A DNA stretch of 52,829 bases from a virus, in the IMG/VR virus record IMGVR_UViG_3300048579_000117, positions 1-52,829 of that record; one strand, 5' to 3'. Both the position numbers and the translations under genes were made by a program. The notes under the pieces were generated by a model. That model was not told the origin of the DNA. It did no database searches and saw only the letters and a list, made by a program, of their open reading frames with translations. Position 1 is the stretch's first letter, and every line of letters starts with the position of its first letter. Shown here piece after piece: positions 26,420 through 35,331 of this stretch.

Positions 26420-26644
26420 GGCCTCACATGATGCACACCTTGGGCCCGCGCGCCCACGTACACCACCCGTCCCGCCCCGCCTCCCCGAGTGATAGGACAG
26501 CGCAGCGCGTCGCAACGCATTCGATTTCAGTCACGCCCCGCGCGCACCACTCTGGTGCCGGTCGCGGGTCCTTCCCCGAAGCCCCTGAACAGGGTAATGC
26601 GAACCCCTCGATGCCTGTAGTCAGTGGGGGCGGAAGTTACTGAA

Positions 26645-29065
26645 ATGGGGGCGTCGAATCACGATTCAGTGGTGCAGCAGCTGCGCGCTGCAGGGCTGAT
26701 TGTTCCGTACCTGAAGATCACCGGTAAGGCGGTCCGCTGCAAGGTCGAGGGCGAGCGGGAGAAACGCGGCTGGTACATCCTGCATGAACTGATGCTGGAC
26801 GGCGGCGACCTGGTCATCGTCGGGTCGTTCGGGATCTGGCGCGGAAACAACAACGGCGCGCAGAAGGTCACGCTGGAACGAAACGCGCTCACCGATGAGC
26901 AGCAGGCCGCGCTGCGGCAGCGGCTGAAGGACGACCAGAAGCGAGCGGAGCAGGAGCGGCGGGCCGAGGCGAACAGGGCTGCGGAGCAGGCGGACCGCGT
27001 GTGGCGCCGTCTTTCGGTCACCGGGGACTGCGACTACCTGGAGCGCAAGGGCGTCAAGGCGCATGGCGTGAAGTTCACGCCCTCGGGGGCGATGGCCGTT
27101 CCGATGATGGACGTGAGCGGGCGCGTGTGGGGCCTGCAGTTCATCCTCACGCGGGCGAAGCACGCGAAGCGGATTGCCCGCACCGAGCGCGACAAAGAGT
27201 ACTGGCCGGCGGGCCTGGACAAGATCGGGAAGTTCCACCTGGTCGGCGGCGTGCCGACCTGGTGCGTGCTGATCGCTGAGGGCTACGCCACCGCCGCCAC
27301 GCTGCACGAAGCGACCGGCCTGCCCGTCGCGGTCGCGTTCGACGCCGGCAACCTTCTGCCAGTGGCGAGGGTGCTGCGCAAGCGCTATCCCGGTATCAAC
27401 ATCCTGATCTGCGCCGACGACGACGCCTTCGGCAAGTGCCAGGGCTGCAAGGCGCCAGTCAAGACCGGCCGGCTCGATGACCTGTGCCCGGCCTGCGGCA
27501 AGCCGCACCGCTGCGAGAACGCAGGCTGCCGCGACGCGGCGACCGCCTCGCTGACGGTCGAAGGCAAGTGGATCAAGCCCGAGTTCCCCGACGACATGCA
27601 GCGCTGGGAGCGGTTCTGCGAGCGCGGCGCGAAGATCACCGACTTCAACGACCTGCACGCTGCCTGCGGCCTCACCACGGTGCGTTCGCAGATCGAGGAC
27701 GCGATCAGGCGGTTCAATTGGGCCGTACCCGCCGCCGCGCGGGACTCGGCACCTCGGGGGGGAGGGGCGGCGGCCGATCTGCGGCCAGTCGAGAGCGTCG
27801 AAACGCTGCTCGAACGCTTCTCGCTCGTCTACGGCCACGGCGGGTCAGTGTTCGATCATCAGGAACACATCCTGGTCACGCTCTCGGACATGCGCGATCT
27901 CTGCACGCGGCGCGAATTCTCGCGGCGCTGGCAGGAACACCCGTCGCGCAAGATCGTGCGCGTCGACGAAGTCGGGTTCGATCCGGGCGAAGAGGACGCC
28001 GCCATCAAGTGCAACCTGTGGGGCGGCTGGCCGACGGTGCCGAAGGCGGGGAAGTGCGACAACCTGCTCGACCTGTTGCGCTACATGTGCCAGGCCGACC
28101 CGAAGGCCGAAGAGCTTTACCGCTGGGTGCTGCGCTGGATCGCCTACCCGATCCAGCACCCGGGCGCGAAGATGAAAACGACCGTCGTCATTCACGGTCC
28201 GCAAGGCACCGGGAAGAACATGTTCTTCGAAGCCGTGATGGCCATCTACGGCCGTTACGGCTGGGTCATCGACCAGTCGGCCATTGAGGACAAGTTCAAC
28301 GACTGGGCCTCGCGCAAGCTGTTCCTGATCGCCGACGAGGTCGTTGCGCGGTCCGAAATGTTCCACATCAAGAACAAGCTGAAGTCGTTCATCACGAACG
28401 ACCAGATCCGCATCAACCCGAAGAACATGCAGGCGTACTGGGAGGCGAACCACGTCAACATGGTTTTCCTCTCCAACGAGCGCATGCCCGTCGTGCTGGA
28501 AGAGGACGACCGCCGGCACGCCGTCATCTGGACGCCCGTCAAGCTCGGGCCCGACTTCTACACCGCGGTGAAAGCCGAGATCGCTGCCGGCGGCATCCCT
28601 GCGCTGCACGACTACCTGCTCAACCTTCCCATGGGCGATTTCGCGGCCCACACGCTCCCGCCGATGACTGAAGCCAAGGCCGAACTCATCGACCTGTCAC
28701 GCGACTCGACCAGCCGCTTCCTCATGCACTGGACGGACGGCGAAATCGGTGGCGTCGGCCTGATGCCGGCCCTGTCGGACGACGTCTATCAGCTCTACGT
28801 CGCGTGGTGCCATCGCAACGGCATCGGGCGTGGTGCGCCACTGAACAAGCTGATCGACGCGCTGGTGAAAAAGCACCGCTGCGGGCATGAGCGCAAGCGC
28901 TACATGGTCGGCGCCAGCACGAAGCAGAGCATGTTCGTGTTCCCCCCGGGGTGCGCTGAGGCCCCGCCAGGCAGCAACCAGTCGGACTACTTCACCGAGT
29001 GCGTCGAAGCGTTCCGCAACGCCCTCAAGGACTACAGGGAAGGGGTCGGCCGTGGCGGATTCTGA
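26645..29065 (+). CDS. Bifunctional primase-helicase (P4 alpha / D5-like: Toprim primase plus SF3 helicase)
   Basis: Toprim acidic motif NILICADDDAFG with a Cys4 cluster CQGC...CPAC. Walker A IHGPQGTGKN and Walker B LFLIADEV. 806 aa from ATG 26645 (the track has GTG 26624). Confidence 0.85.
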   Translation: MGASNHDSVVQQLRAAGLIVPYLKITGKAVRCKVEGEREKRGWYILHELMLDGGDLVIVGSFGIWRGNNNGAQKVTLERNALTDEQQAALRQRLKDDQKRAEQERRAEANRAAEQADRVWRRLSVTGDCDYLERKGVKAHGVKFTPSGAMAVPMMDVSGRVWGLQFILTRAKHAKRIARTERDKEYWPAGLDKIGKFHLVGGVPTWCVLIAEGYATAATLHEATGLPVAVAFDAGNLLPVARVLRKRYPGINILICADDDAFGKCQGCKAPVKTGRLDDLCPACGKPHRCENAGCRDAATASLTVEGKWIKPEFPDDMQRWERFCERGAKITDFNDLHAACGLTTVRSQIEDAIRRFNWAVPAAARDSAPRGGGAAADLRPVESVETLLERFSLVYGHGGSVFDHQEHILVTLSDMRDLCTRREFSRRWQEHPSRKIVRVDEVGFDPGEEDAAIKCNLWGGWPTVPKAGKCDNLLDLLRYMCQADPKAEELYRWVLRWIAYPIQHPGAKMKTTVVIHGPQGTGKNMFFEAVMAIYGRYGWVIDQSAIEDKFNDWASRKLFLIADEVVARSEMFHIKNKLKSFITNDQIRINPKNMQAYWEANHVNMVFLSNERMPVVLEEDDRRHAVIWTPVKLGPDFYTAVKAEIAAGGIPALHDYLLNLPMGDFAAHTLPPMTEAKAELIDLSRDSTSRFLMHWTDGEIGGVGLMPALSDDVYQLYVAWCHRNGIGRGAPLNKLIDALVKKHRCGHERKRYMVGASTKQSMFVFPPGCAEAPPGSNQSDYFTECVEAFRNALKDYREGVGRGGF

Positions 29066-29072
29066 CCTGAAA

Positions 29073-29339
29073 TGTGCAGGGTGTGCAGGGCATGTGCAGG
29101 GTGATGTGCAGGGTACGAATAGCCCGCAAACGGCTTGCGAAAGCCAATGTGCAGGGTGTGCAGGGTTCTCGCGCACGTGTACACGCGAGAACGCAACGCG
29201 CCCCCGCCGTCGCTCCATTGAAAAATCGATTTCTCGTGTACACGCGACCCTGCACACCCTGCACACCCTGCACATTCCAACATCCATGCGGGTTTCCGCC
29301 CGTTTCGTACCCTGCACATCACCCTGCACACCCTGCACA
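29073..29339. repeat. Iteron array: 12 copies of TGTGCAGGG (6 direct at 29073-29165, 6 inverted at 29248-29339) around a hairpin and an AT-rich centre
   Basis: Direct copies at 29073, 29082, 29093, 29105, 29148 and 29157. Inverted CCCTGCACA at 29248, 29257, 29266, 29310, 29322 and 29331. Hairpin ttctcgcg-N10-cgcgagaa at 29166-29191. GTGTACACGCGA is repeated at 29177 and 29236. Confidence 0.9.
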
Positions 29340-29371
29340 AAGGGTGTAGTGGTGGAGAAAGGTGTAGAGCG

Positions 29372-29971
29372 ATGAGCGAAGTGAAGGCCGAAATGGGCTT
29401 CGCCGAATTCGCCCGACACCTCGGCGTGCGTCCGTCCTACATCACCGAACTGCGCAAGGCTGGCCGCCTGGTGCTGACCGACGACGCCAAGGCCGTGAAG
29501 GTCGCGGAATCGCTCGCCCTGATCGACAGCACCCGCGACCCCTCGCGCGGCGGCGTCGCGGCCCGGCATGCCGCCGCGCGCGGCCACGAAGTCGGGCCCG
29601 GCCCCTCGGCTGAGACGGCAGCTGACCCGGCCGACGACGAAGAGCGCGCCGTTTCAGTCGCCGCCGCGTCGAACGACCACGGCTTCCAGAAGGCCAAGGC
29701 CATCAACGAGCGGTACAAGGCCATGACCGCCAAGGTCGAGTACGAACGGCTCATCGGCCGGCTGGCGCCGGTGGATGAGATCGAGGCCGCCGCCGCCGAC
29801 CTGGTGACATCCCTGCGCCGTCGGCTCGAAAACATGGGCGCAATGCTCGCGCCCCTCGTCGCTCCGGTCACCGAGCCCTCCGCCTGCCGGGCGCTCATCG
29901 ACGAATACGTCGAAGGCGTGCTGCGCGAAACCTCCGACACCCTGAAACCGAAGAAGGGAACCCCGCAATGA
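29372..29971 (+). CDS. terS: Terminase small subunit (Nu1-like, N-terminal HTH)
   Basis: N-terminal HTH MGFAEFARHLGVRPSYITELRKAG. Central ERYKAMTAKVEYERLIGRLAPVDEI resembles the lambda Nu1 region ERHRLTRAQADAQELKNARDSAEVV. Lies upstream of the packaging genes. Confidence 0.6.
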   Translation: MSEVKAEMGFAEFARHLGVRPSYITELRKAGRLVLTDDAKAVKVAESLALIDSTRDPSRGGVAARHAAARGHEVGPGPSAETAADPADDEERAVSVAAASNDHGFQKAKAINERYKAMTAKVEYERLIGRLAPVDEIEAAAADLVTSLRRRLENMGAMLAPLVAPVTEPSACRALIDEYVEGVLRETSDTLKPKKGTPQ

Positions 29972-30663
29972 ACGCCCCCGAACTGCGGCCGGTGGTCGGC
30001 CTGCGCCCCTACGCCGGCAACGCCAAGCGCCACCCGCCCGAACAGATCGAGCAGATGGCCCGCACCTTCGACGCCCTGGGCTTCGTAGGCGCCATCGTCG
30101 TGCGCGACGGCACCATCGCCAAGGGGCACGGCAGCCTGAAGGCCGTCGAATCGATCTATGCCCGCGGCGGGCTGCTCTACCCGGCGCCGGGCCGGGAGCA
30201 GGGCGCCGAACCCTTTCCGGCCGGCACCGTGCCGGTGCTCGACGTCACCGGCTGGACTGAAGCCCAGTTCCGCGCCTACGTCATCGCAGACAACCGGCTG
30301 GCCGAAGGCGGCGACTGGGACGCCGAACTGCTGCGCGGCGAACTCGACGCACTGGCCGACTTCGACGACTTCGACTTCGATCGCCTGGGCCTCGATTTCG
30401 ACGACGCCCTGAGCGCGCTGGACGAGGACGAACGCACCGTCGACGCGAATGCCGCGCGCCAGCCCGATGACGAAGGCACGGCCCAGCAGCCGGCCGCCGC
30501 CGGCACGACGACAAGCGCACCCACGGCCCCAAAGGCGCCGCCGAAGAAACCCACCGTCTACCCGGTGATGGTCAGCCTGAACCGCGCCCAGTACGACCGG
30601 CTGCAGGCCTTCAAGGACGAACACGGCATGTCGGATGTCGATGTGCTGATGAGGGGCATCTGA
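29968..30663 (+). CDS. ParB-like N-terminal nuclease domain protein
   Basis: LRPYAGNAKRHPPEQIEQMARTFDALGFVGAIVV is the ParB/Srx-type motif seen in phage ParB-methylase pairs. Acidic, low-complexity C-terminus. ATGA coupled. Confidence 0.75.
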   Translation: MNAPELRPVVGLRPYAGNAKRHPPEQIEQMARTFDALGFVGAIVVRDGTIAKGHGSLKAVESIYARGGLLYPAPGREQGAEPFPAGTVPVLDVTGWTEAQFRAYVIADNRLAEGGDWDAELLRGELDALADFDDFDFDRLGLDFDDALSALDEDERTVDANAARQPDDEGTAQQPAAAGTTTSAPTAPKAPPKKPTVYPVMVSLNRAQYDRLQAFKDEHGMSDVDVLMRGI

Positions 30664-31943
30664 TGAGCGACTGGCTCAACCGCTGCCACTTCGGTGACTG
30701 CCGCGACACGATGCGCCGCATGATCGCGGACGGCGTGCGCGTGCAGTGCATCGTCACGTCGCCGCCTTACTGGGGGCTGCGCGACTACGGCGTCGTCGGG
30801 CAGATCGGGCTGGAGCCGACGCTGCCGGAGTTTCTGGCGCAGCTGGTCGAGGTGTTCGATCTCTGCCGCCAGCTGCTCACCGACGACGGCACGCTGTGGC
30901 TGAACATGGGCGACAGCTACGCGGGGTCGCGATGCGGCCCGGATAAATCAAGCCCGCTGCGGTCGTCGCGCGACAACATGACCGAGGCAATGCGCGCGAA
31001 GGCAGCTATGGTGGCCAGCCGCCGGCGCGACGACCACCCGATTCCCCGCAGCGATGTGCACGTTGCCGGGCTGAAACCAAAGGACTTGGTAGGTCAGCCG
31101 TGGCGCCTCGCCTTTGCGCTGCAGGGTTTTGCGGTGATTGACGGTGCTTCGATGGCGCAATGGGCAGACTGGCTTGCTGAAGCTCGCGTCGTTGGTGATT
31201 GGGAAATGGTTCAGATGGTCGAGGACCGGATTCGCGCAGAGTCGGCGCTGTCTGCCTTGCGCGACGCCGGCTGGTGGCTGCGCCAGGACATCATCTGGTC
31301 GAAGCCGAACCCGATGCCGGAATCGGTGCGCGACCGTTGCACGAAGGCTCACGAGTACCTGTTCCTGCTCAGCAAGTCTGAGCGCTACTTCTTCGACTTC
31401 GATGCGAACAAGGAATCCGCGGTCAGTGCAACTTGTGCCGTGCCTGCTGGATGGGATACCGGCGCAGGGGCACACCGGGATCTGAAAGGGCGATACAGCG
31501 GAACCGGTGTCGGATTCGGCCACGGCTACGACGCCAACCCGAAGCCGCGCAGCCGCCGTGACTCGTTCAAGCGCGAGGACAGCAAGCGCGAGCAGGCCAT
31601 CCCCGGCCAGTCCGTAGGGACGCATCGTCCTGAGCGCGCCGAAAGCGAGTGGGATGTGAGCCGGCGCAACCGCCGCAGCGTCTGGACCATCCCGACGCAG
31701 GCCTACAGCGGCGCGCACTTCGCCACCTTCCCCGAAGCGCTGGTCGAGCCGTGCGTGCTTGCCGGCAGCCGGCCGGGCGACATCGTTTTCGACCCGTTCT
31801 TCGGTACCGGCACCGTCGGCCGCGTTGCGCTGCGTTTCGGCCGCCAGTTCATCGGCTGCGAACTGAACCCCGACAACCTCGCCCTGCAGAACGACCGCCT
31901 ACGCGGCGTGACCGCAGGCCTACCCCTTGGAGCATGTGCATGA
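30663..31943 (+). CDS. Beta-class N6-adenine/N4-cytosine DNA methyltransferase
   Basis: Motif IV CIVTSPPYWGL precedes motif I VFDPFFGTGTVG (permuted beta order). 426 aa. Confidence 0.85.
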   Translation: MSDWLNRCHFGDCRDTMRRMIADGVRVQCIVTSPPYWGLRDYGVVGQIGLEPTLPEFLAQLVEVFDLCRQLLTDDGTLWLNMGDSYAGSRCGPDKSSPLRSSRDNMTEAMRAKAAMVASRRRDDHPIPRSDVHVAGLKPKDLVGQPWRLAFALQGFAVIDGASMAQWADWLAEARVVGDWEMVQMVEDRIRAESALSALRDAGWWLRQDIIWSKPNPMPESVRDRCTKAHEYLFLLSKSERYFFDFDANKESAVSATCAVPAGWDTGAGAHRDLKGRYSGTGVGFGHGYDANPKPRSRRDSFKREDSKREQAIPGQSVGTHRPERAESEWDVSRRNRRSVWTIPTQAYSGAHFATFPEALVEPCVLAGSRPGDIVFDPFFGTGTVGRVALRFGRQFIGCELNPDNLALQNDRLRGVTAGLPLGACA

Positions 31944-33316
31944 GCCTCCGCATCTACACCGGCGAATACCTCATTTCCCCCGCGCTGCTGCACTTCGGCG
32001 GCAACTGGTGCACGCACGGCTGCGCCTACTGCTTCGCGAACCTGAACAAGCCGGATCGGGTGTCGGAGCCCAACGACATCGCGCGCGTGCTGAAGTGGTT
32101 CGACACCGGGTCGACCGCCATGGAATACGAACTGCTGCGCATGGGTCACCCGATCCTGATGAGCAACGACAGCGACCCGTGCGCGAAGAGCAACGCGGCG
32201 ATTCATCGCTGCATCGTCGAGGCGCTGTCGCCGCTGGGCGTGCGCTTCGCGTACCAGACCCGTGGCGGGGTGCCGGAAGAGGAGCAGCGCATCATCGACC
32301 AGCCGCCGACCATGGTCTATGTGTCGCTCACCACCGACGACGAAAGGGTGCGCCAGCGGCATGAGCCCGGTGCACCGCCGCACGCGCAGCGCATGGACTT
32401 CATCCGGCGCCTGCGCCAGGCCGGCCACATGGTTGTGGTCGGGCTGAACCCCTTCGTACCCAAGTGGTGGGGCGACGTCGACGCCTGCTTCGAGCAGCTG
32501 GCGTCCTGGGGTGTGGCGCACGTGTGGCACCAGGCCATGCACCTGTCGCGCTGGCAGATCAGCGCGATGACGGACAAGGCGAAGGTCAAGCACGCGGACC
32601 TGATCGACTACGCCTCGAAGAAGGTGGCGCCCGACGCCAAGGACTACGCCGCCGCCATGGACCGCATCGAGGCCATGGGCTTCAACCTGTTCTCCGGCGG
32701 CGTCTCCAACAAGCTGGGCTTCTGGGATGAGTGGTTTGACCGCCTCGGCTACCCGTGGTCGCCCACGCTCGATGCGCTGGTGCGCGACTGCGACCTTGCT
32801 GCCGGTGGCCAGCCGCTGGCGATCGATCTGGCGGAGTTCAACGAATGGGCCGATATCGGCCTCACTCGCCCGCGTGCCATCTGGAAAGAGTTCCTGAACG
32901 GCTTCGGGCGCAGCGTGCGCAACACCGGTGAGGACACCCGCGCACACACGCAGGCCGAAGCGAACGCCTTCATCTGGCGCTTCGACGAGTTCCCCACGCG
33001 CTTCCGGCACGCCTGCTTCGCGCGCGTGCTGTACGACGATGCGCACGCCGCCGACCTGGACGGTGTGCCCCTCATGGCAGTGTCGAAAGACGGGTTCGCG
33101 GAATGGGAAGTGGGCCATTCCGATGTGACCTTCCTCAACCACCCACTGGAAAGGAAGTGCGATGGCCGAGAACCACTCTGCTCGACAGAAGAGCAGCGGC
33201 AAGTACAGCACGCGCAAGGGCCAGATGGTCCGCAAGCGCAGCGCCCCGTACTCGCCGAAGTACCGCGGCACCTAGTAGAAAGCGGGGCGGCTGATGTCGC
33301 CCCGCCGCAGGCCTGA
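31940..33316 (+). CDS. Radical SAM enzyme, SplB/COG1533-like (about 458 aa)
   Basis: CX3CX2C cluster motif in GGNWCTHGCAYCFANL near the N-terminus. SNDSDPC, FAYQTRGG and VYVSLTTDD...HEPGAPP...RMDFIRRL...GLNPFVP follow the SplB-type layout. ATGA start at 31940. The last 50 or so codons have low GC3. Confidence 0.7.
   Translation: MSLRIYTGEYLISPALLHFGGNWCTHGCAYCFANLNKPDRVSEPNDIARVLKWFDTGSTAMEYELLRMGHPILMSNDSDPCAKSNAAIHRCIVEALSPLGVRFAYQTRGGVPEEEQRIIDQPPTMVYVSLTTDDERVRQRHEPGAPPHAQRMDFIRRLRQAGHMVVVGLNPFVPKWWGDVDACFEQLASWGVAHVWHQAMHLSRWQISAMTDKAKVKHADLIDYASKKVAPDAKDYAAAMDRIEAMGFNLFSGGVSNKLGFWDEWFDRLGYPWSPTLDALVRDCDLAAGGQPLAIDLAEFNEWADIGLTRPRAIWKEFLNGFGRSVRNTGEDTRAHTQAEANAFIWRFDEFPTRFRHACFARVLYDDAHAADLDGVPLMAVSKDGFAEWEVGHSDVTFLNHPLERKCDGREPLCSTEEQRQVQHAQGPDGPQAQRPVLAEVPRHLVESGAADVAPPQA
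33162..33275 (+). CDS. Candidate small, very basic protein (37 aa) overlapping the radical SAM 3' end; not in the ORF track
   Basis: AAGGAAG RBS 5 nt before ATG 33162. MAENHSARQKSSGKYSTRKGQMVRKRSAPYSPKYRGT. GC3 is about 90% in this frame and clearly lower in the overlapping frame. Confidence 0.35.
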   Translation: MAENHSARQKSSGKYSTRKGQMVRKRSAPYSPKYRGT

Positions 33317-35331
33317 TGCAGGCAGCGCTCGTTACCCGCGAGGGCTTCGCAGACGCGCGGGCCGTGCTCCGGCGCGTCGCCGCGAAGTCGATCGCACCGC
33401 GTGAGAATCTGACCGTCAGCCAGTGGTCTGACGCGAAGATGCACCTCACGTCGAAGAGCGGCGCGAAGACCGGCCGTTGGGTCACGGACAACAATCCGCC
33501 CCTGCGCGAGCCCATGGACTGCATGAGCGCCCGCAGCAGCGTGCAGGACGTCGCGCTCATGTTCCCGATCCAGTTCGGGAAGTCGGCCGTCGCGACCAAC
33601 GTCATCGGCTACTGCATGGACCACGACCCCGGCCCGATCATGTACGCGCTGCCGGGCGAAGTGTCGATGACGAAGTGGATCAACCAGAAGTTGAATCCCA
33701 TGGTCGAGGCGTGCGACGCGGTGCGCGAGGCGCTGACCAGCGTGTCCAGCCGCGATTCGTCGAACACCCGCACGTTCAAAGACTTTCTCGGCGGGCAACT
33801 GTACGTCGAACACGCCGGCAGCCCGCTGCGGCTGAAGTCGACCAGCGTGTTCCGGCTCATCGTCGACGAGGTGGACGAGTTCGCCGCAAACCTCATCGGC
33901 GGCGGCGACCCCATGAAGATGCTGGAAGGGCGCACCTCCGCCTTTCCGATGAACTACAAGCGCCTGTACATCAGCACGCCCGAACTGCTCGGCGTCAGCC
34001 GCATCCACGGCCTGTTCATGAAGGGCGACCAACGGCGCTACCACGTGCCGTGCCCGCACTGCGGCGAAATGCAGCACCTCGAATGGAAGGGCCTGCACTG
34101 GTCGGACGGCGGCAAACGGGCCTGGTACGTATGCCGCGAGAACGGCTGCATCATCGAAGAGCACCACAAGCGGCAAATGATCGCCTTCGGCCGCTGGGTG
34201 GCGGAAAACCCCGGCGCCGAGATCCGCAGTTACCACATCAACTGCCTGTACTACCAGCCGGACCTTGGCCCCAGCTGGGCGAAGCTGGCTGAAGAGTGGA
34301 TCGACGCACAGACCGACCCGGAAAAGCTCAAGACCTTCGTCAATGACCGGCTGGCCGAGCCGTGGGAAGACCCGGCCATGCGCCGGGCCAAGTTCAACAT
34401 CATCAAGGACCGCGCCGAGCCCTACGCACTGCGCCGCGCGGTGGCCAGCGTGCTCGCCGTGACCGCGGGCGTCGACACGCAAGACAGTCGCCTCGCTGTC
34501 CACATCACCGGCTGGGGGCGCGGCATGGCCTCATGGACGCTCGATTACGTCGAACTGCCGGGCGACCCGGAAGCCGGCGAGGTGTGGAACAGCCTGGTCG
34601 AGTTGCTGAGCCGGCCCATCGAACACGAATGGGGCGGCGTGCTGCACGTGCTCGCCACGGCCATCGACGCCGGCGGCCACCGCACCGCTTCAGTGAAGGA
34701 CTTCGTACGCGCGCGGCGCATCACCCGCCCCATGTGCATCTTCGGCTCGACGCAGAACAACGCGCCGATGCTCGGCAAGGGCAAGCTCGAAGACGTGAAG
34801 GCCAGCGGAAAGACCGACCGCCGCGGCCTGCTGGTCTATCAGGTCGGCACCGTCGCCATCAAGCACCAACTGTACGCACGGCTTTCCACCGATCACGACA
34901 AGCAGGTCGCCGACCGGCTGGTGCACCTGAGCGACGACCTCGACGACTTCTACTTCAACGGCCTCGTGTCCGAGGTCTACAACCCGAAGAAGAACCGGTT
35001 CGAGAAGAAAACAGGCGTCCGCAACGAACCGCTGGACACCTACACCTACTCGTATGCCGCCGCGCTGCACCCGGAGTTGCGCCTGCATCGCCAAAACCGC
35101 GACGACTGGGACAAACGCGAGCGCGAACTGCGCGACATGGCCCGGCCCGGTGCCGTCCAGGCCGCGACCGAACGCCTGGCGGCCGCCGCGCGCAGCCGCG
35201 ATGAACAGGATGAGCCCGCGCCATCTCTCGACGGCCGTCGCGACCCGGTACCGATGCCCGCACCCCTGCCGCAGTCACGCTCGCGCGGCGACGACAGCGA
35301 CCTTTTCTCACCCATATCGATGATCGGCTGA
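33316..35331 (+). CDS. terL: Terminase large subunit (lambda GpA family)
   Basis: 671 aa. N-terminal NLTVSQWSDA...LREPMDCMS...VALMFPIQFGKSAV (P-loop-like) and overall GpA layout. Followed by gpW and a lambda-type portal. Confidence 0.9.
   Translation: MQAALVTREGFADARAVLRRVAAKSIAPRENLTVSQWSDAKMHLTSKSGAKTGRWVTDNNPPLREPMDCMSARSSVQDVALMFPIQFGKSAVATNVIGYCMDHDPGPIMYALPGEVSMTKWINQKLNPMVEACDAVREALTSVSSRDSSNTRTFKDFLGGQLYVEHAGSPLRLKSTSVFRLIVDEVDEFAANLIGGGDPMKMLEGRTSAFPMNYKRLYISTPELLGVSRIHGLFMKGDQRRYHVPCPHCGEMQHLEWKGLHWSDGGKRAWYVCRENGCIIEEHHKRQMIAFGRWVAENPGAEIRSYHINCLYYQPDLGPSWAKLAEEWIDAQTDPEKLKTFVNDRLAEPWEDPAMRRAKFNIIKDRAEPYALRRAVASVLAVTAGVDTQDSRLAVHITGWGRGMASWTLDYVELPGDPEAGEVWNSLVELLSRPIEHEWGGVLHVLATAIDAGGHRTASVKDFVRARRITRPMCIFGSTQNNAPMLGKGKLEDVKASGKTDRRGLLVYQVGTVAIKHQLYARLSTDHDKQVADRLVHLSDDLDDFYFNGLVSEVYNPKKNRFEKKTGVRNEPLDTYTYSYAAALHPELRLHRQNRDDWDKRERELRDMARPGAVQAATERLAAAARSRDEQDEPAPSLDGRRDPVPMPAPLPQSRSRGDDSDLFSPISMIG

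Follow-up and report, generated by a model that had tools for sequence, protein, structure and literature searches.

A ParB-like protein, a radical SAM enzyme and a short basic peptide encoded beside the terminase genes of a temperate phage

Genes between terS and terL

We analysed the viral record IMGVR_UViG_3300048579_000117 over its whole length of 52,829 nucleotides (hereafter the window), with attention to the interval between the genes for the small and large terminase subunits (terS and terL). The original prediction, made from the sequence alone, had placed in this interval a ParB-like nuclease, a beta-class methyltransferase (MTase) and a SplB-like radical S-adenosylmethionine (rSAM) enzyme, and had read them as a possible DNA modification or repair step tied to packaging. 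The coordinates of terS and terL and the 3.3-kb gap between them were all confirmed on the window, as was the chaining of the interposed genes by overlapping stop and start codons (ATGA at 29968 and 31940, TGATG at 30663 and 33316). The terL was of the predicted gpA type, with strong matches to two Pfam families (Table 1); the terS assignment was upheld by PHROG, but the label “Nu1-like” was not, since a Pfam scan of the protein returned no Nu1 match. The best explanation of the 3.3 kb is a conserved phage late-operon cassette of three genes, encoding the ParB-like protein, the rSAM enzyme and a basic peptide that had been overlooked, plus the MTase as an extra in this lineage.

The third predicted protein proved to be an rSAM enzyme. 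It scored 45.0 bits against the Pfam model PF04055 (gathering threshold 29.5), and its cluster motif, CTHGCAYC, occupies residues 24–31. The predicted CX3CX2C triad (C24, C28 and C31) was invariant in 37 homologues with 21–61% identity and at least 90% conserved in an alignment of 105 sequences. Other residues invariant in the 37-sequence alignment were N76, D79, Q106, T107, G110, Y127, E142, H163, P171, H201 and Q206, and the SNDSDP, QTRGG, EPGAP and NPxxP motifs that had led to the prediction were present and likewise conserved among homologues. The AlphaFold2 (AF2) model had a predicted local distance difference test score (pLDDT) of 90.7 and was confident except at residues 425–458; over the last 54 codons of the ORF pLDDT fell below 50. 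All 30 Foldseek matches in the Protein Data Bank (PDB) at E ≤ 1e-3 were rSAM enzymes with probability 1.00, including LipA, PFL-AE, TYW1, SkfB, SuiB, spore photoproduct lyase (SPL), NifB and viperin, and all matched through the barrel only (TM-score ≤0.38 on query length). The N-terminal barrel is followed by a family-specific C-terminal domain of 200 aa, for which searches of PDB, Pfam and BFVD gave no match.

Sequence and profile searches of PDB with the enzyme returned nothing significant, and Foldseek against BFVD returned generic viral rSAMs only (best match A0A7S5RCB4). The NCBIfam matches Rv2578c (39 bits against a cut-off of 430), rSAM_Rv_intein, PA0069 and mob_pairB all fell far below cut-off. 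PHROG, Pfam and NCBIfam held no specific family for the enzyme, PADLOC gave no defence-system match, and a tblastn search of 50,697 isolated-phage records had no match at 1e-5. The PHROG matches were phrog_13321 and phrog_9252 (E 2e-5, barrel only). We located gp53 of phage M6, the one rSAM enzyme shown to install a DNA modification (PMC8989533), in the M6 genome, where it belongs to phrog_9252 and also matches phrog_13321; hhalign aligned our rSAM profile to gp53 with a probability of 97.3% (E 2.7e-11) over 194 columns (194 of 480 residues). On these profile comparisons the enzyme is a remote relative of M6 gp53 and SplB-type enzymes that falls outside every described family. The SplB-type assignment stood in part: no specific affinity was seen outside the COG1533/SplB-type clade, but the protein is not SplB proper and lies far below the cut-offs.

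An SPL-like role, in which the enzyme would be a lyase reversing UV photoproducts in densely packed virion DNA, can be given very little credence. Sources annotate the family “DNA repair photolyase” (COG1533), many carriers come from light-exposed habitats (e.g., cyanobacteria), and SPL structures are among the Foldseek matches. However, they rank only 12–26 (E ~1e-4, TM-score on query length 0.30–0.37), under LipA, PFL-AE and TYW1, and NCBIfam gave no SPL model match at E ≤ 0.01. In the sequence alignments of the family, the triad cysteines were the only ones conserved, with Y127 invariant; these alignments showed no conserved cysteine outside the cluster that would correspond to the H-donor of SPL, and none of the SPASM/twitch auxiliary-cluster kind. 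Late-operon timing would also be wrong for repairing incoming DNA, and neither the ParB partner nor the N-terminal tag described below would be explained.

A protein search recovered 122 relatives of approximately 400 aa, nearly all metagenomic, and a profile search of 1.84 billion representatives recovered 327 clusters at E ≤ 1e-30. The family thus comprises about 330 clusters at 50% identity, found in prophages of Proteobacteria, Cyanobacteria, Bacteroidota, Chloroflexota and Acidobacteriota; carriers in culture are Moraxella catarrhalis, Oculatella sp. LEGE 06141 and Chitinophaga skermanii DSM 23857. Homologues of 700–760 aa were considered as informative domain fusions and rejected, the extra length being inteins in the Cys motif. 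These split the motif between its second and third cysteines in three independent homologues (P0059, P0065 and P0111), and the intein-containing NCBIfam family Rv2578c shows the same insertion habit.

For the ParB-like protein, the fold stood and the nuclease did not. The protein matched PHROG ParB families at 1e-11 to 1e-30 (phrog_620, 1.5e-26; phrog_498, 2.8e-30), its N-terminal domain was modelled by AF2 with pLDDT ~90, and the top 15 Foldseek matches were Noc, ParB, pNOB8 ParB-N, SbnI and sulfiredoxin (Srx). The label “nuclease” is unsupported because the Arg of the GxxRxxA box is replaced by Ser (GHGSLKA; consensus of the closest subfamily, GHGTLxA) and a Pfam scan of the protein gave no match. 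Other rSAM-linked ParBs retain GHGR, and some have GNG or GSA. The window protein is acidic (pI 4.55) and begins with the ParB domain. The acidic linker that follows and the conserved beta-alpha-alpha segment at the C-terminus are common to the rSAM-linked ParBs; the segment, about 45 aa long in this group, looks like a ribbon-helix-helix (RHH) domain as modelled. We rejected the idea that it is the small terminase, a separate terS being present between rSAM and terL in seven of ten sampled loci and also in the window.

The MTase is a predicted N6-adenine/N4-cytosine DNA methyltransferase (PF01555, 5.3e-45; PADLOC MTase_II, 5.5e-93). Its beta-class assignment was borne out by the motif order, with motif IV (SPPY, residues 33–36) at the N-terminus and motif I (DPFFGTGT) near the C-terminus. 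A homologue occurs near rSAM in only 5 of 66 lineages and is missing from relatives at 54% identity, so the gene is a lineage-specific insertion between ParB and rSAM. A dependence of the cassette on the methylase was rejected on the same count, and the proposed unit of ParB, MTase and rSAM gave way to a conserved set of ParB, rSAM and peptide.

A conserved cassette, a hidden peptide gene and an N-terminal tag

We collected 104 rSAM neighbourhoods (80 viral contigs and 24 genome contigs; individual loci carry L numbers), which with the window formed 66 lineages at 80% rSAM identity. A ParB-like gene was present within 5 kb of rSAM in 55 of these, and directly upstream in 49 of the 54 lineages with at least 700 nt of upstream sequence (91%); in 41 lineages no more than 60 nt lay between its end and the rSAM start, and the typical junction was a 4-nt overlap. 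Of the 57 lineages whose flank was long enough, 43 had a same-strand terL no more than 5 kb downstream, at a median distance of 668 nt. By type, 35 were Terminase_6 and 10 gpA, and Terminase_3 appeared in the peptide-side look-ups described below, which supports the proposed tie to the packaging operon across three terminase families. The rSAM–terL gap is usually filled by terS of varied PHROG families (7 of 10 sampled), giving the order ParB-rSAM-peptide-terS-terL, whereas the window, L008 and L010 have terS-ParB-rSAM-terL. A cassette wedged between terS and terL, as first described, is thus true of the window and part of the gpA-type clade, but the usual order places it before terS. The conserved unit is a ParB-like gene, rSAM, and a gene for a tagged peptide or cargo protein, beside the terminase genes.

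Positional coincidence, in which a hotspot at the replication/packaging boundary collects unrelated ParB, MTase, rSAM and small open reading frames (ORFs), is highly improbable in our judgement. At least 19 of the 56 viral loci sampled do have a ParB-domain gene with another partner just upstream of terL, and the window's MTase was clearly inserted independently. Against this stand the frequency of the ParB-rSAM pairing, mostly with overlapping stop and start codons and across phyla and the three terminase families, and the finding of the peptide next to rSAM only, with 0.67 Mb of control ParB loci negative.

Elsewhere, a Leptolyngbyaceae metagenome-assembled genome (MAG; CBDHHL01, L088–L095 and L103) holds at least eight copies of the ParB-rSAM core, 94–97% identical over 2–4 kb. 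Their flanks are mosaic, with terL and a portal gene upstream on the opposite strand.

The peptide gene was recognised at the end of the rSAM ORF. Homologues of the enzyme stop near window residue 404. Over the last 54 codons (33152–33316) the third-position GC content (GC3) is 0.61, compared with 0.89 for the core. Read in the +1 frame, the same tail has a GC3 of 0.89 and contains a 37-aa ORF, MAENHSARQKSSGKYSTRKGQMVRKRSAPYSPKYRGT, with a pI of 11.1 and preceded by the Shine–Dalgarno (SD)-like sequence GGAAAGGAAG. L081, a relative with 92% identity, differs by 16 substitutions, of which 8 are at third codon positions of this ORF. The tail is probably meaningless in the rSAM frame, and the inventory of three genes between terS and terL had missed a fourth. 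Relative to its homologues the rSAM ORF has lost its stop codon; the read-through ends at the terL start, and public gene calls (P0001, 460 aa) keep the tail. In high-GC phage DNA, a read-through ORF can thus conceal a small gene that overlaps it.

Homologous peptides are 32–45 aa long with a pI of ~12 and the consensus MA[SA][SA]GGxW[HK]T..GxRFF..GESxQKA. Outside the window's lineage, their starts fall between −33 and +22 nt relative to the rSAM stop; a hidden Markov model (HMM) found them in 13 of 66 lineages and gave no match in the control ParB loci, which were not phylogenetically matched. Public gene calls contained 33 peptide clusters (E down to 2e-13), and all four look-ups made from the peptide side returned a ParB-like gene, Radical_SAM, the peptide and a terminase (gpA, Terminase_6N or Terminase_3). 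PHROG and Pfam held no family for the peptide.

The peptide’s N-terminus, MAxxGGx[W/F](K)xGxF, also heads larger proteins, several of them in one phage, whose genes are grouped around the cassette. Under a position-specific score, this strict tag was found in 16 of 66 lineages, with up to six tagged genes per phage; scores were at least 18.6 and mostly above 24, and the best control reached 17.7. It is conserved across phyla (Methylococcaceae, Oculatella, Chloroflexia and Chitinophagaceae). The Oculatella prophage encodes three tagged proteins, one of them an ADP-ribosyltransferase (ART; PF03496, 1.4e-14) resembling virion-borne and Alt-like ARTs, and tagged proteins number three in L031 (one with a C-terminal ART-like motif, by eye), six in L051 and two in L085. 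Looser “MAG..” glycine-rich or basic N-termini follow rSAM in many other lineages, including Moraxella catarrhalis prophages, and where ParB occurs without rSAM the next genes are untagged. The charges are complementary, with ParB at pI 4.8, the rSAM C-terminal domain at net −6, and the peptides at net +9 and pI ~12.

Within single prophages, one 13-aa start such as MASKGGSWKSGKF is shared by several proteins (L038/L102:7340–10460, L031:2139–5090 and L051:4841–11323). Starts of the MASKGGSWKSGKF type stand on ADP-ribosyltransferases and on proteins of unassigned function.

Sampling from the ParB side gave a different picture. Among 78 viral loci retrieved with the ParB N-terminal domain, none had rSAM, so the ParB-rSAM link is one-directional; most encoded ParB-MTase fusions of ~420 aa, often just upstream of terL. 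The genes following close solo ParB relatives were rSAM (L187), two TAGT glycosyltransferases (L188), an unknown gene (L189) and terS-terL (L190). In L188 (5001–8479) the two genes encode DNA-base glycosyltransferases of the TAGT family (PF20691) and follow ParB in the place of rSAM, which suggests that DNA-modifying enzymes can be exchanged for one another with solo ParB as their common partner.

The region upstream of terS holds a repeat array. All 12 exact copies of TGTGCAGGG in the window lie within it, where 0.65 would be expected, and are arranged in two inverted blocks flanking a central dyad (TTCTCGCGCACGTGTACACGCGAGAA / TTCTCGTGTACACGCGA). The array is kept in close relatives (9–12 copies in L001–L004, seven in L081) and may be a candidate cos/pac (terS-binding) site, an origin or a binding region for the RHH-like segment of ParB. 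It sits between terS and a primase-helicase gene (813 aa, Toprim plus DUF5906/VapE-like; 26624–29065), which directly precedes it; in related gpA-type loci, too, this gene is found ahead of terS or ParB.

The early region (1–26500) encodes DUF5131 (Gp37/Gp68), a C5-cytosine methylase, N6_Mtase, DUF4406/nucleoside deoxyribosyltransferase-like proteins, DUF932, DUF2303, an integrase, Cro, YdaS and a lysozyme, together with an Acb2/Tad1-hairpin protein of the anti-CBASS/Thoeris sponge family. The window phage is temperate, with at least three DNA methyltransferases and one anti-defence gene. The rSAM relative at 92% identity was located in a Methyloversatilis MAG, and Methyloversatilis is the likely host.

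Table 1 Features of the terminase locus in the window.
Feature	Position	Strand	Basis
terS (terminase small subunit)	29372–29971	+	phrog_57 7e-23
ParB/Srx-like acidic protein, 231 aa; rSAM partner	29968–30663	+	PHROG ParB families, AF2 and Foldseek
Beta-class DNA methyltransferase (predicted), 426 aa	30663–31943	+	PF01555 5e-45; motif IV SPPY
Radical SAM (rSAM), conserved core of ~404 aa	31940–33151	+	PF04055 1.7e-11; 458-aa ORF runs to 33316
Basic 37-aa peptide gene, newly recognised	33162–33275	+	GC3, SD-like sequence, homologues after rSAM stop
terL, gpA-type terminase large subunit	33316–35331	+	PF05876 1.5e-81, PF20454 2.8e-76
Intergenic repeat array upstream of terS	29065–29372		6 + and 6 − copies of TGTGCAGGG

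Candidate substrates of the radical SAM enzyme

Our preferred reading, held tentatively and at somewhat less than an even chance, is that the rSAM enzyme modifies the N-terminal tag of cargo destined for DNA or the capsid. We favour it because a short and extremely conserved N-terminal segment, found together with an rSAM enzyme in one phylum after another, is a classic recognition or substrate signature, and the tag points to a peptide or protein substrate at least as strongly as to DNA. From the gene content, conservation, co-occurrence and position of the cassette and the fold of the enzyme, we infer the following scheme. The enzyme would recognise the tag, MAxxGGx[W/F]..Gx[R/K][F/Y], and modify it post-translationally by radical chemistry. 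Carriers of the tag would be the small basic peptide and, in other phages, larger cargo such as ADP-ribosyltransferases, and the ParB-like protein would act as an adaptor. Once modified, the basic cargo would become associated with the phage DNA while the adjacent terminase packages it, and would be delivered along with it.

Several points weigh against this scheme. Most peptide-modifying rSAMs have SPASM/twitch cysteines and a recognition element (RRE) of the kind that serves peptides made on the ribosome and modified after translation (RiPPs), and neither is recognisable here. The enzyme’s specific homologies are limited to the DNA-acting SplB/gp53 clade, and relatives of the ParB-like protein pair with DNA-modifying enzymes, in MTase fusions and with TAGT glycosyltransferases. 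The strict tag is present in about a quarter of lineages and looser N-termini in about another quarter, with no tag call for the rest; the window’s own peptide has a degenerate tag that lacks GGxW; and the control loci for the tag, like those for the peptide, lacked phylogenetic matching.

Direct DNA modification would have the rSAM enzyme alter a base or sugar of phage DNA before packaging, evading restriction. We regard this as rather unlikely but still as a strong competitor, and retain it because of the SplB/gp53 ancestry of the enzyme, the MTase and TAGT pairing of its ParB partner, and the DpdB precedent, in which a ParB-like ATPase is needed by DpdA (PMC10164549). The homology to M6 gp53 and COG1533-type families is remote but specific, and the closest relatives of ParB stand beside, or are fused to, MTases and TAGT DNA glycosyltransferases. 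The late-operon placement of the genes and the insertion of an MTase into the window’s cassette also speak for it. ParB would then serve as a DNA-loading adaptor, as in ParB-MTase fusions and DpdA/DpdB, and the basic peptide as a DNA-binding accessory or an unrelated gene of the packaging operon. However, the window lacks genes of the 5-hydroxymethyldeoxyuridine (5-hmdU) pathway: a Pfam scan of 29 early-region proteins found no hydroxymethylase or thymidylate-synthase-like protein, 5-HMUDK kinase, aGPT-Pplase or pyridoxal phosphate (PLP) enzyme. Both ParB and rSAM are acidic, and the rSAM is structurally no nearer to SPL than to PFL-AE, LipA or RiPP maturases. Modification of DNA would also leave unexplained the tag on several unrelated proteins per phage and its strict co-location with rSAM.

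The tag and DNA lines of evidence would be reconciled, and all observations explained, if the enzyme joined the tag covalently to phage DNA through a radical on the thymine methyl or the tag glycine, so that basic peptides or effectors would enter the capsid along with the DNA as it is spooled in, and would be injected together with it. Such peptide-DNA conjugation seems to us distinctly improbable, being conjecture throughout, and we know of no precedent for enzymatic DNA-protein tethering by an rSAM enzyme. It would fit the conserved Gly-Gly beside an aromatic residue in the tag, the RHH-like tail of the ParB-like partner, the terminase genes that the cassette abuts and a cargo that includes ARTs of the virion-delivered kind. 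The closest characterised relative, gp53, makes a thymine-glycine C–C bond (PMC8989533), but its glycine is pre-attached by other enzymes, which were absent from the window in the Pfam scan of the 29 early-region proteins, and the window peptide has no Gly-Gly-x-Trp core. In this reading the RHH-tailed ParB-like protein would position the enzyme, and the terminase would package the tethered cargo along with the genome for injection into the next host. If true, conjugation would mean that DNA and protein are joined by a modification of a new class and that effectors have a new delivery route.

The original prediction knew of no described function for its trio, and this was borne out: a literature search that combined ParB with radical SAM in the context of phages, terminases or DNA modification turned up neither the pair nor the trio. 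The component superfamilies are known, and the cassette, the tag and the position in the packaging operon are new. To our knowledge, very few phage rSAM enzymes have an assigned role, and the only rSAM enzymes known to act on DNA are SPL and M6 gp53. The present family has a fixed ParB-like partner, an unannotated peptide gene and a portable N-terminal tag on putative injected effectors; whichever substrate holds (peptide, DNA or both), it would represent new radical chemistry in virion assembly or anti-defence.

Comparison with known systems

Among characterised enzymes, M6 gp53 offers the nearest comparison. It forms a C–C bond between the C5-methylene of thymine and the C-alpha of glycine (PMC8989533). 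Both proteins are phage-encoded members of the SplB-type rSAM clade with a single [4Fe-4S] cluster; they share the CTxGCA[FY]C, SxxSDPF, EPGA and NPxVP motifs, and both match phrog_13321. The alignment, however, covers the barrel only, gp53 having a 120-aa N-terminal extension and a Cys-rich C-terminus where the window enzyme has its own 200-aa C-terminal domain. Moreover, gp53 works in a 5-hmdU/kinase/aGPT-Pplase/PLP pathway and has no ParB or tag-peptide partner. SplB resembles our enzyme in its COG1533-clade barrel, with a structural match at E ~1e-4, and acts on DNA. It differs in that its family model gives no match, its TM-scores are no better than those of PFL-AE or LipA, its H-donor cysteine had no conserved counterpart in the family alignments and its genomic context is another.

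Phage ParB-MTase fusions and pairs (phrog_498) are the most similar to the window protein in the ParB N-terminal domain and occupy the same site just upstream of the terminase; in the window, a separate beta-class MTase likewise comes after ParB. The rSAM-linked ParBs differ in being stand-alone and acidic, with an RHH-like C-terminal domain and rSAM as constant partner, and the window subfamily has lost the Arg. In the DpdA/DpdB system of 7-deazaguanine DNA modification, the DNA transglycosylase DpdA needs DpdB, a ParB-like ATPase (PMC10164549), which likewise makes a ParB-superfamily protein the obligatory helper of a DNA-acting enzyme. DpdB, however, has an intact NTPase motif, another C-terminal domain and a transglycosylase partner, and belongs to a cellular defence system.

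RiPP pairs such as StrB/SuiB-streptide, PqqE-PqqA and MftC-MftA also place a short peptide with a conserved recognition segment beside an rSAM enzyme, with several substrate genes per recognition sequence, and SkfB and SuiB are among the fold matches. The phage cassette differs from them in lacking SPASM/twitch, a recognisable RRE, a protease and an exporter; its conserved segment is at the extreme N-terminus and also heads full-size enzymes, and it lies in a phage packaging operon with a ParB-like partner.

The capsid-targeting sequence of T4 has no sequence relationship to the tag; the prohead protease cleaves it, and it requires neither rSAM nor ParB. T4 Alt, the T4 internal proteins and MuF-fused “polyvalent” effectors (PMC5512222) nevertheless resemble the present system: a short N-terminus is shared by unrelated proteins of one phage, the cargo includes ARTs like Alt and the ART domains of virion proteins, and the genes adjoin those for the head and packaging.

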